From the IMG/VR virus record IMGVR_UViG_3300009370_000022: DNA of 20,000 nucleotides; one strand, given 5' to 3'. The notes beneath the pieces are model-generated. The model was not told where the DNA came from and searched no databases. It saw only the letters and a list, made by a program, of their open reading frames with translations. Below, piece after piece: positions 8,626 through 18,445 of the stretch; positions within the stretch are counted from its first letter, which is position 1, and every line of letters begins with the position of its first letter. The translations under genes were made by a program, and so were the position numbers. This DNA comes from an uncultured virus (IMG/VR IMGVR_UViG_3300009370_000022) (taxonomy: Duplodnaviria; Heunggongvirae; Uroviricota; Caudoviricetes).

Positions 8626-8648
8626 CTGTATTTCTTCTTTCTGTTAAT

Positions 8649-8684
8649 GAGGTTATCCTATCATAAATAGGATAACCTCGTCAA
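8649..8684 (-). promoter_or_regulatory. Promoter TTGACG-N18-TAGGAT overlapped by a perfect 13-bp inverted repeat
   Basis: GAGGTTATCCTAT-cataa-ATAGGATAACCTC at 8649-8679. Confidence 0.65.
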
Positions 8685-8687
8685 GTG

Positions 8688-9662
8688 TTAATTTACACTT
8701 GCATTTTGTTGTTGCTCGTACAACATTCTAGCCTTTATTTTATCCTCTCTTGTTTGGTTTTTGTTTTTCATACCTTTAATCCTATCAGCTAGGTTTTTAG
8801 GATTATATATAACAAGTCCGGTTGAGTTTGTTCTGATTATTTCTGCGTCAGAAATATTCAAACCAAGTTCTGTCGCTAACTCAATAGCCTCGTCAAGATA
8901 TTTATAACCTTTTAGACCAATTTTAATTTCTTTCATCTGATCTAAAATACTTTTTATCCAATTTCTATGTGCCATAACAAATTGACCTTTGGCTTGTTTC
9001 CATTGTTTAAGCATTAAAAATTGTTGTTCATTACAAGCAATAGAACGATCTCTACAATATTCTCTACCAATTAAATCTAATTGGTATTTTTCATTCCATT
9101 GTTTGCCATATCCACTATCATCACTTCCAAGATATTTAGTATTGTTGTCAGTATATTTTGTTAAATGTGGGTTGTTGTCTTTGCCCTCTTGTTCGATCAA
9201 AATATCTGGATTGCAATTATCTTGTGCCTTTAGTTCATCACGATACAAAGCATAGCCATACGCACTATCATCAGAATAACTATCGCTATTATTTTCCATA
9301 CTACCATTTAGTCTAAAATCAAAATGTTCTTCAATAGTATCTTGTTTCATGATTGGATTGTTGTCATAATCTCTATCTTCTTTCATACCTAAATAATGAA
9401 AATGAAAGCAACTATCTTTCGCAATAGTCGAAACATTCTCAAATTTATTCTGTAAGTGATATGCCATTTTGACATCTTCTGGAGTATAATGTTTTCTGAC
9501 AATAGTTTCTGCTAAATTCCACGCATTGTCATTTAACTCAATTTGATCTGCTTTGAGTTCATCATACTTTGTTTTTTCTTGTGTTGGTTCTTGTTCCAAG
9601 TGTACTCGCATACGATTTGCGATTTTATTTCTATACTCTTGGTTTAGTCTTATTCTACTCAT
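8688..9662 (-). CDS. Hypothetical early phage protein (~324 aa)
   Basis: Track ORF 8688..9689; AGAAAGG SD favours the MSRIRLNQ start at 9662; no recognised domain. Confidence 0.85.
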   Translation of the reverse strand: MSRIRLNQEYRNKIANRMRVHLEQEPTQEKTKYDELKADQIELNDNAWNLAETIVRKHYTPEDVKMAYHLQNKFENVSTIAKDSCFHFHYLGMKEDRDYDNNPIMKQDTIEEHFDFRLNGSMENNSDSYSDDSAYGYALYRDELKAQDNCNPDILIEQEGKDNNPHLTKYTDNNTKYLGSDDSGYGKQWNEKYQLDLIGREYCRDRSIACNEQQFLMLKQWKQAKGQFVMAHRNWIKSILDQMKEIKIGLKGYKYLDEAIELATELGLNISDAEIIRTNSTGLVIYNPKNLADRIKGMKNKNQTREDKIKARMLYEQQQNASVN

Positions 9663-9695
9663 TTTTGCCTTTCTGTTTTTATTTTGCATGATTTG

Positions 9696-9738
9696 AAATT
9701 AACACTTGACATTTATTCTGTCAAGCATTAAATAGGAT
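9696..9738. promoter_or_regulatory. Divergent promoter region with palindromic CTTGACA...TGTCAAG
   Basis: Minus strand TTGACA-N17-TAATTT with extended TG; plus strand TTGACA at 9706 and TAGGAT at 9733 (non-canonical spacing). Confidence 0.55.
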
Positions 9739-9759
9739 TAATTAATTATGTATGAGAAC

Positions 9760-10240
9760 TGATGGAATTCTAGGTTGTACGCCTCTGATTAATTGGGACA
9801 ACTTCTGGTTGTAGTACGTCACACCGACATTAGCCGTCCGTCTTCGTGCTATGAACTAGAACTGATCCCTGATCGCTGTTAGCTCAATGGCAGAATTTCG
9901 AATTCACCAATAGTCCAGCGATCTGGGATCAGATGTTGTAACTGCTGGATTTAAACGGCTATAGTACAGGTTGCAAGCGAAGTCACGCTGGCTATCAGTG
10001 TAGCTACGGAGGTAGCCTGCCTGCACAGGACAACAACTGATCCCTGGTCCATATTATTAGTTGCCAGTAGCAGATCTCAATGTGGTTGCGAAGAGTATGG
10101 GCCTGGGATCAGGAATAATGAGAAAAAATCAGCTGTCTGCGGCCGGCCTAAACATTCAGCCAGGTTTTGCTCATACGTGTTCTATAGTAAGCACGTATGG
10201 GTTAGTATGAAATTTTTAACCCGGCCGGAATTTTAAAAAG
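9760..10240 (+). ncRNA. Putative large structured non-coding RNA / hairpin-cassette array
   Basis: No ORF >=60 aa; GC-richer than flanks; abutting stems 9803-9818/9845-9861, 9862-9878/9916-9932, 9934-9939/10030-10035, 10037-10055/10094-10112, 10169-10181/10190-10202, with many G-U pairs only on the + strand. Confidence 0.7.
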
Positions 10241-10291
10241 CTTCAAGCAACGAGCAACAAGCTTGACAGGACCTGTAGGATAGTATAGGAT
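10241..10291 (+). promoter_or_regulatory. Promoter TTGACA-N17-TAGGAT preceded by heptad repeats
   Basis: TTCAAGC AACGAGC AACAAGC TTGACA(10263) ... TAGGAT(10286). Confidence 0.8.
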
Positions 10292-10549: not shown

Positions 10550-10606
10550 TTTAAGCCTGAAGCAACAAGCAGCAAGCTTGACAGCTGGTCCCGGAGATGA
10601 TAGGAT
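10550..10606 (+). promoter_or_regulatory. Promoter TTGACA-N17-TAGGAT preceded by heptad repeats
   Basis: TTTAAGC CTGAAGC AACAAGC AGCAAGC TTGACA(10578) ... TAGGAT(10601). Confidence 0.8.
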
Positions 10607-10801: not shown

Positions 10802-10949
10802 TTTATTAAATTATTTCATCCATGATAAGCAGGACCTGAGTCCTGCTTACGTGCGCAGCTGTGAAAAGTTTTTTAAAAGCCTGAAGTCTCAAGCAGCAAG
10901 CCGCAAGCCGCAAGCGCCACGAAAAAGACACAATCATGAATTAAAATAA
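10773..10949 (+). CDS. Small hypothetical protein (58 aa)
   Basis: Hand-translated MTRIRSNHNNLLNYFIHDKQDLSPAYVRSCEKFFK...; AGGAG SD; the 3' end is a heptad array. Confidence 0.65.
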   Translation: MTRIRSNHNNLLNYFIHDKQDLSPAYVRSCEKFFKSLKSQAASRKPQAPRKRHNHELK

Positions 10950-10960
10950 AATTAGAAAGT

Positions 10961-11557
10961 ATGAAAGTTAAAGAAGCTCAAGCAATCACCGGGTCCATGA
11001 CCCGCACGTCTAAGATGCCTGGCCTAAGCTACAGCCTGCCAGCATGGGAATGCCAAACGGGCTCTAAGCTCCGGAAGGTTAAAGGCACGCCCTGCTATGG
11101 CTGTTATGCCCTGAAAGGAAATTATTTAAGATATCCAGCAATTAAGAAGGCACAGTACTACAGGCTGGCAAGCCTGGTCCATGACTCATGGGTCGTGGCT
11201 ATGGTTGCACAGGTGAAGAGACAGAAATATTTTAGATGGCATGACGCCGGAGATGTACAGAGCCCCGAGCATATGAATAAAATTTTAACAGTTTGCAGGT
11301 TAACACCTGACACGAAGCACTGGCTGCCAACACAGGAGCGCGCGTACCTGCCAGATCCTGAAGAGGTGCCCGTTAACCTGGTGATCAGGTTGTCAGGGTC
11401 GAAGGTCGATGGACCACCACCGACGGCCTGGGCTCATACATCATCAGTCGTAACGAAGGGCGCAACATGCCCCGCGCCTCAACAGGGCGGCAAGTGTAAA
11501 GAATGCAGGGCCTGCTGGACAAAATCAATTAAAAATGTAAGTTACGGAAAACATTAA
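10961..11557 (+). CDS. GP88-like Cys-rich protein (radical-SAM-like Fe-S candidate)
   Basis: SKMP..SYSLPA.EC...CYGCYA, FRWHDAGD, C-terminal CPA...KCKECRACW pattern recalled for the phage gene-product-88 family. Confidence 0.8.
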   Translation: MKVKEAQAITGSMTRTSKMPGLSYSLPAWECQTGSKLRKVKGTPCYGCYALKGNYLRYPAIKKAQYYRLASLVHDSWVVAMVAQVKRQKYFRWHDAGDVQSPEHMNKILTVCRLTPDTKHWLPTQERAYLPDPEEVPVNLVIRLSGSKVDGPPPTAWAHTSSVVTKGATCPAPQQGGKCKECRACWTKSIKNVSYGKH

Positions 11558-13555: not shown

Positions 13556-13860
13556 CGACACCTATAAAGGAAAAATTTTTTTTCGCTGCGCTAAAAAATA
13601 AAAAAATAAAAAGGTGTCGAATTTCTCCTGAAAATCTCCTAGAACCCTTGGTATACAACACTAATACGTGAAATAGGGGGGGTGTCGGAAGGGTGTCGGA
13701 AGGGTGTCGGCAAAGTGTCGAAGTGTCGACATTTTGTGGCAGAATTGTGGCAAAAAGATGGCCAAAGTGCCTTATTTGTACACTTCTGTCGCAGTTTGCC
13801 AAAAAGTGCGACACCTCCCCGACACCCTCCCGACACCCTCCCGACACCCTAAGTGTCGAA
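13556..13860. repeat. Iteron-like inverted array with 11-bp phasing (candidate origin or packaging site)
   Basis: GTGTCG at 13682, 13693, 13704, 13715; CGACAC at 13809, 13820, 13831, 13842; A/T runs at 13571-13612. Confidence 0.85.
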
Positions 13861-13862
13861 GT

Positions 13863-14531
13863 TTAGGCTACTTGTTTGTTGTACATATCCAGGCGGTGAA
13901 GCCACTTGTGCTTCCAACTTCGGAGATCCGAGTCTTGGATTTTGAATTCTTGGTAGTATAAATCTGGAGTGCAGATCATGATAACGCCCTGTCTAATTTC
14001 AGATCTATACACATAGTCATGGGCCATGGCGTATGCAGCAATTTGTAAGAAATAGTCATCGATCCAATCTTTATTCTTGGGACGATTAGCCTGCTTAAAA
14101 TCTACAATAGTATCTAAACCGTTATGATTACATACCAAGTCAGTACTGCCAGCATATAACCCAGGATAATGCAACGTGACTTCCGAGCCGTAATACTCTT
14201 CAACAGGCGCAAGACCAATCTCAATAATTTTATTGGCCATGGCTTTCGCCTTTTGTCCGAGCCCTGTAAGATCATCGTAGCCAACTCCTTGGATATGAGA
14301 CTCAAGGAACTTGTGCATACTAGTCCCTCGCTTGCTAGATAGATTCTTAATTGATTCGGCTTTTTCATGTCCAACTTTATTTTTCCAGGCGGTTAGATAC
14401 TCCTGATTTTTAGTTTTTGCAAGTATTGTTGTGACTGAAGGTAATTTTTCTCCTGCTACATCATAGCTCCGTGAGCCGTGTTCCGTGGACCGTGATCCCT
14501 GCACGTACTTATACCGATCACTCTTCTTCAT
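13863..14531 (-). CDS. PD-(D/E)XK exonuclease (phage Cas4/lambda-exo-like)
   Basis: LPSVTTIL, RGTSMHKFLE, YAGSTDLV, IVDFKQ, YFLQIAAYA. Confidence 0.9.
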   Translation of the reverse strand: MKKSDRYKYVQGSRSTEHGSRSYDVAGEKLPSVTTILAKTKNQEYLTAWKNKVGHEKAESIKNLSSKRGTSMHKFLESHIQGVGYDDLTGLGQKAKAMANKIIEIGLAPVEEYYGSEVTLHYPGLYAGSTDLVCNHNGLDTIVDFKQANRPKNKDWIDDYFLQIAAYAMAHDYVYRSEIRQGVIMICTPDLYYQEFKIQDSDLRSWKHKWLHRLDMYNKQVA

Positions 14532-14945: not shown

Positions 14946-15025
14946 AATACAACTATTAACATATACAAAGAAAGAAGAGTCATCAACCCTAGAAATGTAA
15001 AGACCATTATAAAAATTTTATTCAT
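14942..15025 (-). CDS. 27-aa single-TM peptide
   Basis: MNKIFIMVFTFLGLMTLLSLYMLIVVL; ATGA overlaps on both sides. Confidence 0.6.
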   Translation of the reverse strand: MNKIFIMVFTFLGLMTLLSLYMLIVVL

Positions 15026-15456
15026 CGAGGCTCTATTCCTCTTATTTGTCGTTCTGCTTCTAGGTCTACTACATTATCCCCAAGATCCTGAATATTAGGT
15101 TCGTAATGATCTATAATTTGTTCTACCTTGTGGAGTTTAACCCGAGAGTACGGCCATATTAATTTAGCAACATACAAAGCGTCTCGGTGAGCCACTCGCC
15201 ATCGCCATTGTCGTTTATAACCCTTCTTAACTTTACGTTCACCAAAGGAGCCACATTGAAACAATTCATGACACCATTTAATAACTTCCTTATCAGTCAT
15301 AGCCATTTCCATTCTAACAACCCAGACCTTATGAACTGGTTTGCCTGGTCGCTTATGCTTCATCTGGTCCATTCTTTTAATGTAAACGGATCCTTCGCCA
15401 TCAAACAGTCCAGCAAAATAAGCTATATCATTTGTAGTAAGTGGTGACTCTTCCAT
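15022..15456 (-). CDS. Free-standing single-motif LAGLIDADG protein
   Basis: IAYFAGLFDGEGSVYI, then MAMTDKEVIKW..FQCG...WRWRV. Confidence 0.85.
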   Translation of the reverse strand: MEESPLTTNDIAYFAGLFDGEGSVYIKRMDQMKHKRPGKPVHKVWVVRMEMAMTDKEVIKWCHELFQCGSFGERKVKKGYKRQWRWRVAHRDALYVAKLIWPYSRVKLHKVEQIIDHYEPNIQDLGDNVVDLEAERQIRGIEPR

Positions 15457-17728: not shown

Positions 17729-17826
17729 CTTTTTTTCCTATTATATGCTTTCTTATTCTTTACCACAAGTTGACGGTAACGTCTATCTCTTAAAAACTTT
17801 GCTATTGGATTTTTCTTTTTAGTCAA
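17692..17826 (-). CDS. ArfA-like basic peptide (44 aa)
   Basis: TTG start; MTKKKNPIAKFLRDRRYRQLVVKNKKAYNRKKRW; aligns by eye with E. coli ArfA [29 protein letters not shown]. Confidence 0.6.
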   Translation of the reverse strand: MTKKKNPIAKFLRDRRYRQLVVKNKKAYNRKKRWHSDKDPSEVK

Positions 17827-18034
17827 GGATTAATGAGAGAATTTTCTTCTCGCCCATATATATCTCGGTCTTAGCCTTAGATTTTATGCATTTATAGACC
17901 ACTCTATCTGTTGGCTTCTTGTCCCTCATCGATATACGCTTGGCCTTAAGGCATTTGGAGAGGCTGGGCTGGATACGATGTTCTTTAATTTCATGGTCCC
18001 AGATTAAAAGCAGGGCGAACACAGTCTCTATCAT
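17819..18034 (-). CDS. Hypothetical protein (71 aa)
   Basis: ORF track; ATGA overlap upstream; two Cys. Confidence 0.75.
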   Translation of the reverse strand: MIETVFALLLIWDHEIKEHRIQPSLSKCLKAKRISMRDKKPTDRVVYKCIKSKAKTEIYMGEKKILSLILD

Positions 18035-18445
18035 TGATGACCTCCATTTCCATTAGCAAATGTTCTTTGCTTATCTTTTAATTTTTCAATGTCAGATAAT
18101 ATCTTCTCTACGTCTTTTTGTAAACGTTCTATGTTAACGGTATTTGACATCATATCCTCCATCGAAGATTCTATTTTTTCTACTTGCCCACTCATATGTT
18201 CGATCAACATGAACTGCTCAGAATCAGCGGGGTAAGGATCCGAGTAATCCACGAGGCCATCCGATACGGAAAGCTGTGTTTTCTACGAGATCCTTCTCCA
18301 TTAGTTCTAGTTTTGTTGAGTGTCGATTTTGCGTCTCAATGATACCGAAGTAAGCCCAGGTCCCGATCGCAACCAGCGCGATCAACGAGGCGACCGTCTT
18401 CATAGGCATTTGAACTTTTGCTTCGTCTGAAATTTTGAGTGCCAT
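18031..18445 (-). pseudogene. TM plus coiled-coil protein split by a 1-nt insertion (or sequencing error)
   Basis: Track ORFs 18224..18445 and 18031..18252 fuse (...GLLGSLP|ADSEQFMLIE...) on removing one base from the G4 run at 18229-18232. Confidence 0.7.

Follow-up and report, generated by a model that had tools for sequence, protein, structure and literature searches.

The window (the whole 20,000-nucleotide stretch analyzed, from the uncultured virus record IMGVR_UViG_3300009370_000022) carries at 9740–10215 one array of ~480 nt that comprises about six separately folding RNA modules. The array is conserved, modular, structured, and strand-specific. Its exchangeable repertoire is very large and, on the evidence of alignments, its loops are selected for self-complementarity. 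We interpret the array as a recombination-shuffled arsenal of natural dimerizing RNA aptamers or decoys made early in infection, a reading on which our judgment is evenly poised. That HTVC027P-type pelagiphages carry several hundred dimerizing aptamer families in one frame, as an RNA-only arsenal for host takeover or anti-defense, is a proposal that we hold tentatively, at a little under even confidence.

The array phage is HTVC027P-like and probably a SAR11 phage. The terminase large subunit of the window is 72.5% identical to that of Pelagibacter phage HTVC027P and 61% identical to that of HTVC023P, and among annotated relatives of the 333-aa gene to the left of the tract the best is that of HTVC027P, which points to SAR11 as the probable host of the window phage. 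This phage group is reported to be among the most abundant in the sea.

Modules and Surroundings of the Array

The tract sits between divergent genes, behind a TTGACA/TGTCAA pair that, read by eye, is probably a two-way promoter. A putative sigma-70 promoter of the array lies on the plus strand at 9706–9738 (TTGACA at 9706, with a −10 that is weak here; by eye) and overlaps a divergent putative promoter that would serve the 333-aa gene (minus strand, 9696–9724; TTGACA at 9724–9719, also by eye). The inverted TTGACA pair is conserved in relatives, which show TTGACA, 17 nt, and TATATT or TATATA at the place of the array promoter. A consensus promoter scan of the window did not list the 9706 site; the next promoters that it listed are at 10263 and 10578. 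The array ends on the plus strand at 10238–10291, with CAAGC repeats (repeat family D1) and the next promoter, TTGACA-17-TAGGAT at 10263–10291. Short-period CAAGC repeats occur at 10238–10268, 10553–10583, and 10877–10919, directly upstream of TTGACA boxes, as they do in most relatives read; they are possibly a binding site or the mark of a promoter cassette.

Arrays of this type alternate two slots: A, inside the frame CTGATCCC-T...T-GGGATCAG, and B, from one GGGATCAG to the next CTGATCCC. A frame unit consists of 8 bp, a U.U mismatch, and then mostly 8–12 bp, with a unit length of 45–140 nt. The slot-B register, GGGATCAG with the next CTGATCCC, can also pair (z −4.97 in the window), so the frame has two possible pairings. 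Arms abut, joined by linkers of 0–1 nt, and the slots contain no ORFs. The first-pass annotation had reported two units with the same T.T mismatch at 9862–9932 and 10037–10112, and both are present; the frame-unit pattern matches twice in the window and never in 200 shuffles. It had begun the array at 9760, and the region that it recognized holds, with a start ~20 nt earlier, near 9740.

All modules read on the plus strand, and each has family members elsewhere in other phages. Module 1 (9740–9794) has an AT-rich closing stem and the palindrome GAATTC at 9765–9770; its 4 distinct variants carry GAATTC or TTCGAA, and alone it folds weakly (z 0.27). At 9795–9861 the 5′ frame GGGACAAC-N5-GTTGT is combined with module 2, which has a CACACC/CGTCTT internal loop (z −3.54). 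Among the matches listed, the module 2 family occurs in 64 distinct contexts and the 5′ frame begins 92 of 192 arrays. In 91 of 99 distinct contexts, the N5 can pair with the five bases that immediately precede the first CTGATC, a distal partner with which it covaries. A GTTGT...ACAAC stem had been described twice: the one at 9935/10030 stands (paired in 33 of 33), while the one at 9774/9798 is probably a lowest-energy artifact, because relatives swap the module at 9774 while GGGACAAC-N5-GTTGT stays, its N5 pairing elsewhere.

Frame unit A1 (9862–9932; fold z −5.35) comprises the 8 bp, the U.U, an inner stem, and an insert at 9879–9915, whose family is found in 4 distinct contexts with compensatory changes (among the matches listed). 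By eye this insert resembled a tRNA loop, but we discarded the likeness since the variation among relatives is that of a hairpin with internal loops; a tRNA scan of the window returned none. Slot B (9934–10036) holds a CTATA three-way-junction module with a nested insert and the palindrome TAGCTA at 10001–10006. In an alignment of 33 sequences of this junction, 99.4% of cells are paired and 5 pairs have changed on both sides, with covariation as high in 4 of 500 shuffles; 105 of 192 arrays (among the matches listed) have this junction in slot B.

Frame unit A2 (10037–10112; fold z −5.28) carries an insert of the TATTAGT...GAAGAG family with the palindrome AGATCT at 10072–10077. This is the largest A family, with at least 21 members, and it appears in A, B, and other slots in 29, 18, and 16 contexts (among the matches listed); its inner parts contain a palindromic hexamer in 36 of 43 cases (7 in the mirror control). 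The terminal module (10113–10168), weak alone (z 0.70), carries the 8-nt palindrome GGCCGGCC at 10141–10148, and all 13 distinct copies have a palindrome at that place, comprising five different 8-mers. The final 12-bp hairpin (10169–10215; z −4.74) has the loop palindrome CTATAG at 10182–10187; the loop is CTATAG or CTTAAG in 12 of 13 copies, and the stems covary.

The usual upstream neighbor is the gene for the 333-aa protein (minus strand, 8688–9689). Of 102 independently identified arrays with 650 nt or more of upstream DNA, 57 have it there (among the matches listed). It is at most a candidate partner of the array, and some phages carry the gene without the frame. The protein has no Pfam, PHROG, PDB sequence, or Atlas match; its alignment-based model (pLDDT 82) has a best Z of 5.4 and no PDB match at E 0.001, and one weak row (E 0.11) leads to a phage nucleotide-modification-associated protein. 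As a candidate array partner it gained no support either way from sequence and fold searches. Downstream, a GP88-family gene (plus strand, 10961–11557; PF17338, E 6e-27) accompanies 45 of the 49 arrays whose downstream DNA is long enough to show it (among the matches listed).

Other features of the window include two tight hairpins and a promoter-like site at 8644–8701, just past the 333-aa gene, where one hairpin arm repeats the sequence of 9696–9710. A non-coding inverted block of 11-nt repeats at 13656–13857, with GGGTGTCGGAA facing CCGACACCCT, sits between divergent genes near the small terminase and could be an origin or packaging site. A LAGLIDADG-like endonuclease gene is found at 15022–15456.

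Distribution, Repertoire, and Covariation

A search with the neighbor protein identified 275 related stretches, of which 80 were kept, 67 with upstream DNA. Pattern scans of viral and metagenome contigs added loci, and all counts are lower bounds. At least 597 loci, chance pattern hits included, yielded at least 496 distinct framed units; stem and family statistics use only the at least 443 distinct units in relatives that have the T.T mismatch of the frame and an unambiguous strand. In 185,579 cellular genomes there are at least 3 frame matches, all on short contigs that also carry genes of the array phage. Among cultured or complete relatives, the frame is present in HTVC027P and 023Pt_psg01 and absent in HTVC023P, which indicates that the array is not needed by all relatives. 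An intergenic gap of HTVC023P (L202, 6880–7310) contains three TTGAGA(A/T)TAACAACGAAA-like repeats and hairpins. Four related loci lack the frame and instead have, ahead of the 333-aa gene, other hairpins and T-rich GGGTGGGCCCGCC repeats.

Among the matches listed, complete arrays are 168–856 nt long (median 414, 185 arrays) and contain 1–4 frame units, in keeping with the variable unit number expected by the first-pass annotation. Its central observation, a fixed scaffold with a variable insert, is supported by the framed units of relatives. The nearly equal loops of 37 and 38 nt are a coincidence, as inserts range from under 10 to ~110 nt, mostly 20–50 (at least 496 units). Nor are the loops unconstrained in sequence; for each of them, other phages contain members of the same structured family. 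That annotation did not describe the second slot, which lies between frames, or the self-complementarity of the loops, or how large the repertoire is.

That inner stems differ yet still pair is borne out as covariation across at least 443 units. Inner-stem positions 1–7 are 95–99.5% paired against 45–97% with shuffled partners, and positions 5–7 are 95–99% paired against 45–58%; relatedness inflates such contrasts, and the variety of pair types is wide. Eight inner-stem positions give 3544 appositions, of which 3269 are Watson-Crick, 225 G.U, 8 A.C, and 42 other (among the matches listed). The excess of G.U over A.C upholds the plus-strand structure proposed earlier, as does the folding of the whole tract (z −5.75 on the plus strand, −3.56 on the minus strand). 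Among the matches listed, GNRA loops number 24 on the plus strand against 10 on the minus strand, and UNCG loops 6 against 0. The array is thus structured as a single strand, most likely as RNA.

The array is probably transcribed. Four marine RNA libraries contain low-depth contigs over parts of related arrays, one of them spanning 9923–10034; such contigs give no strand and may hold DNA, so they are weak evidence for transcription. RNA runs contained 0.05–0.10 of the array words or none, and absent cover in contigs is uninformative. In HTVC027P, the two genes directly downstream of the array are reported to be highly expressed at 6–9 h in the available text of PMC12753301, in which the words “intergenic” and “non-coding” do not appear.

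At least 431 slot-A cores fall into at least 282 families, 209 of them singletons. A Chao estimate from 327 arrays (among the matches listed) suggests ~620 slot-A families, a rough figure that depends on the clustering threshold. The at least 364 slot-B sequences form at least 129 clusters, a few of which are flanking DNA. The same family occurs twice within only 7 of 133 multi-unit arrays (among the matches listed). Among 46 phages, an A family is common to both members in 3 of 41 pairs whose neighbor protein is at least 90% identical, and in 13 of 174 pairs at 85–90%. Turnover of inserts is therefore very fast, and inserts move between slots. Inverted units are absent from 203 multi-unit loci (among the matches listed), which speaks against inversion at the inverted frame. 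The sharing of families between slots, their low sharing between phages, and the lack of inversion indicate that modules are gained, lost, and moved as units. As judged from these comparisons, modules are swapped between phages, probably by recombination.

Palindromic hexamers occur in 284 of 413 inserts against 182±8 in shuffles, and palindromic 8-mers number 149 against 58±7 (both among the matches listed). Among families with at least three members, 23 of 36 A families retain a palindrome at the same alignment position (6–8 for three control symmetries), and in 12 of 36 its core has changed yet is still palindromic (controls 0–1). Among B families, counted without the largest one and a flank cluster, it is kept in 6 of 18 (controls 2–4) and core-swapped in 2 of 18 (controls 0). 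Conserved palindromes are lacking in 13 of 36 A families and in 12 of 18 B families. In 41 of 185 arrays (among the matches listed) no predicted loop contains a palindrome, although lowest-energy folding hides some. At the sequence level, these comparisons demonstrate selection for self-complementarity of the loops. Core-swapped palindromes are, as an alignment pattern, the mark of an intermolecular kissing loop, and the modules may dimerize.

Proposed Function and Alternatives

Under the preferred interpretation, host RNA polymerase would transcribe ~480 nt from the promoter at 9706. Each insert folds on its own within a strong closing stem, as covariation shows. The binding surface may be a conserved internal loop or junction, while the self-complementary loop of 6–8 nt would let two copies pair as a kissing dimer suited to two-fold symmetric host proteins, possibly defense enzymes or regulators. 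The near-invariant frame may provide short DNA homology for module swapping between co-infecting phages. Host RNase III, found in 5 of 5 SAR11-like genomes, may liberate single units by cleaving the ~19-bp frame stems.

In favor of this interpretation, RNAs of 38 nt obtained by selection can act as competitive inhibitors of a restriction enzyme; against it, these KpnI aptamers bind as monomers and lack the recognition site (PMC4551934). A defense system was detected in only 19 of 172 Pelagibacter genomes, all restriction-modification, according to the part of PMC11066056 available. This leaves few known targets for hundreds of families and counts against aptamers or decoys; families and arrays that lack palindromes likewise count against dimerization. 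If the modules bind proteins, they would constitute a large natural aptamer collection and a handle on the intracellular conflict between SAR11 and its phages. If the interpretation as a whole is correct, the arrays would be in effect a SELEX run in the ocean, and their targets would expose SAR11 defense systems missed by current tools. The proposal is testable now, as HTVC027P, a phage in culture with its host, has an array at 17,739–18,139 of MN698241, and stranded infection reads are public (BioProject PRJNA1253180).

One alternative, which we regard as unlikely, is that the intact transcript is a multi-armed RNA that networks by kissing loops into a condensate or cage, serving as a compartment or a trap for host machinery. 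Such a network would suit arms that abut with 0–1 nt linkers and a load of 1.8 loop palindromes for each array, compared with 0.57 after shuffling (60 arrays), and synthetic four-armed RNAs condense via palindromic 6-nt kissing loops (PMC11567899, available text). However, a network would not need hundreds of families with conserved non-pairing cores, and in 107 of 185 arrays (among the matches listed) no more than one loop palindrome is predicted. The tendency of an array not to use the same palindrome twice is no more than suggestive (6 of 211 pairs against 11.3±3.3, P 0.055).

It is rather improbable that the modules bind small molecules (immune signals, cofactors, or metals) or are catalytic, in the manner of riboswitches or ribozymes. 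Such functions would accommodate the multi-way junctions, pseudoknot-like pairings, and invariant unpaired bases, as well as the large and well-conserved Flavobacterium-1 module of some arrays (discussed below), but none of 60 related loci matched a riboswitch or ribozyme family. Moreover, families far outnumber plausible ligands, and no expression platform lies beside a gene.

A further possibility, quite improbable in our assessment, is that the palindromes mimic restriction or methylation sites and that each module decoys the enzyme reading that site. The words are palindromes of 4–8 nt, many of which we take to equal common type II sites. Against this idea, one scaffold carries up to five different palindromes, and enzymes for different restriction sites are structurally unlike. 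The phage DNA would itself carry the sites, and palindromes are not clearly avoided elsewhere in the window (664 hexamers observed, 702 expected). In its favor, restriction-modification is the only defense reported for these hosts in the part of PMC11066056 available.

The first-pass annotation suggested a guide, antisense, or decoy RNA array. Of these, decoy fits best, whereas guide and antisense roles are disfavored by covarying inserts and the lack of host or phage matches. That the inserts pair with host or rival-phage nucleic acid is very unlikely, even though a constant frame with a variable insert would suit such a function. The host set consisted of 1.0–1.5 Mb alphaproteobacteria-like genomes of one order, with SAM-V riboswitches in 16 of 41, and is probably SAR11. 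Against 121 of these genomes (best five candidates per genome; tally including G714), the window array reached at best E 0.003, in its AT-rich first 28 nt, and the two loops, put forward earlier for a search of host genomes, reached only E 0.09 and 0.3. Four other arrays behaved similarly, three of which reached at best E 0.001 over 41 genomes each. One array (L153) matches G665 C1 269237–269277 over 41 nt (81%, E 0.001, 2 of 41 genomes), probably by chance. In a nucleotide search of 50,697 annotated phages, the window array and one other (L462) had no match, and the HTVC027P array matched only itself. Hfq was found in 0 of 5 SAR11-like genomes, and Pfam and PHROG scans of 20 window proteins identified no guide effector family. 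The inserts carry covarying stems and conserved internal loops. Within the reach of these searches, which does not extend to seeds of 8–12 nt, the inserts are not guides.

We consider it equally unlikely that the structures act as single-stranded DNA, as attC-kind recombination sites, origin hairpins, or DNA decoys. A single DNA strand would accommodate the strand-biased G.T pairs as well, and the frame is an inverted repeat of nearly fixed sequence, but the RNA tetraloop bias, the upstream putative promoter, the lack of inverted units (0 of 203), and slots without ORFs argue otherwise. In addition, reverse transcriptase (PF00078) is absent from 5 records (3 complete genomes, two of them with the frame; control 3 of 14). 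Least plausible is neutral or selfish hairpin clutter kept by recombination, which would explain the very fast turnover and the absence of the array in some relatives but not the compensatory changes in stems and palindromes or the invariant loop motifs across diverged stems.

Comparison with Known Systems

We found no description of the array in the literature; subscription papers and supplements may list some motifs, and the available main text of two genome-language-model preprints does not mention SAR11 or pelagiphages. As the first-pass annotation had supposed, the window units match no Rfam family: nothing reaches a gathering score, and four sub-threshold rows are due to chance. Across 60 related loci, Flavobacterium-1 RNA (RF02976) is the one true family, above the gathering cutoff in 5, where it is the last module of the array; HTVC027P scores 90.2 bits, and no match in the window exceeds 58.9 bits. 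The motif, a large and well-conserved module, is present in 8 of 192 arrays (among the matches listed) and in 0 of 151 SAR11-like genomes. In Rfam it is a single sRNA family, without the array, frame, or other modules.

Flavobacterium-1 was reportedly described by Weinberg et al. in 2017. The name does not appear in the main text of PMC5737381, as far as available. In one locus (L599, 652–771), the RNA is on a Flavobacterium single-cell contig, inside a pelagiphage-type array beside phage genes. This contig encodes the GP88 and terminase small subunit of the array phage (66–69% identity), so the name probably reflects a viral contig in the assembly and, as far as gene content can tell, probably denotes the wrong host. 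Flavobacterium-1 RNA thereby gains a probable true home in pelagiphages.

CRISPR, TIGR, and VIPR guide arrays likewise have a constant repeat and a variable insert in one precursor transcript, the latter being probable here. CRISPR arrays have direct repeats and even, unstructured spacers that match foreign DNA. Here, the frame is an inverted pair and the inserts are structured, under 10 to 110 nt, and match nothing beyond chance; the earlier exclusion of CRISPR therefore holds, given structured, uneven inserts without target matches. The 20 window proteins include no cas genes; the exonuclease at 13863 has a Cas-associated PHROG as a weak second hit. TIGR and VIPR arrays have short regular repeat units and an adjacent Nop-domain or RRM effector, while units here are 45–140 nt and no such Pfam effector is found among the 20 window proteins. 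These guide arrays are named in the abstract of 10.64898/2026.10.21.760802.

The ncRNA arrays of UG27 reverse transcriptases (bioRxiv 10.64898/2026.09.22.753630, available text) are also intergenic in phages, structured, and subject to single-unit gain and loss. However, the units of UG27 systems have a common ~150-nt fold and serve as cDNA templates of the adjacent RT, whereas the folds here differ and belong to at least 282 families. In integrons, attC hairpins flank ORF cassettes and are accompanied by an integrase; here the slots lack ORFs, and no integrase is found among the 20 window proteins. T7-type RNase III sites resemble the frame stem (8 bp, U.U, 8–12 bp) in having a ~20-bp helix with a small internal loop, but lie between protein genes, whereas frame stems flank RNA modules. 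Phage RNA decoys, such as RNA anti-CRISPRs (Racr) and the pseudo-ToxI repeats of PhiTE, each copy one known host RNA. They are also phage ncRNAs for which neutralization of a host protein by mimicry is proposed, but here there are hundreds of families and no host counterpart was found.

ROOL and GOLLD multimers provide a kissing-loop comparison. The HIV-1 dimer initiation site and synthetic RNA nanostars (PMC11567899, available text) likewise present self-complementary 6-nt loops on helix arms; here such loops are on exchangeable modules of a natural phage array, for which dimerization is predicted. Whereas known phage non-coding arrays repeat one fold or carry the guides of a protein, the array described here accommodates hundreds of unrelated folds in a plug-in frame.
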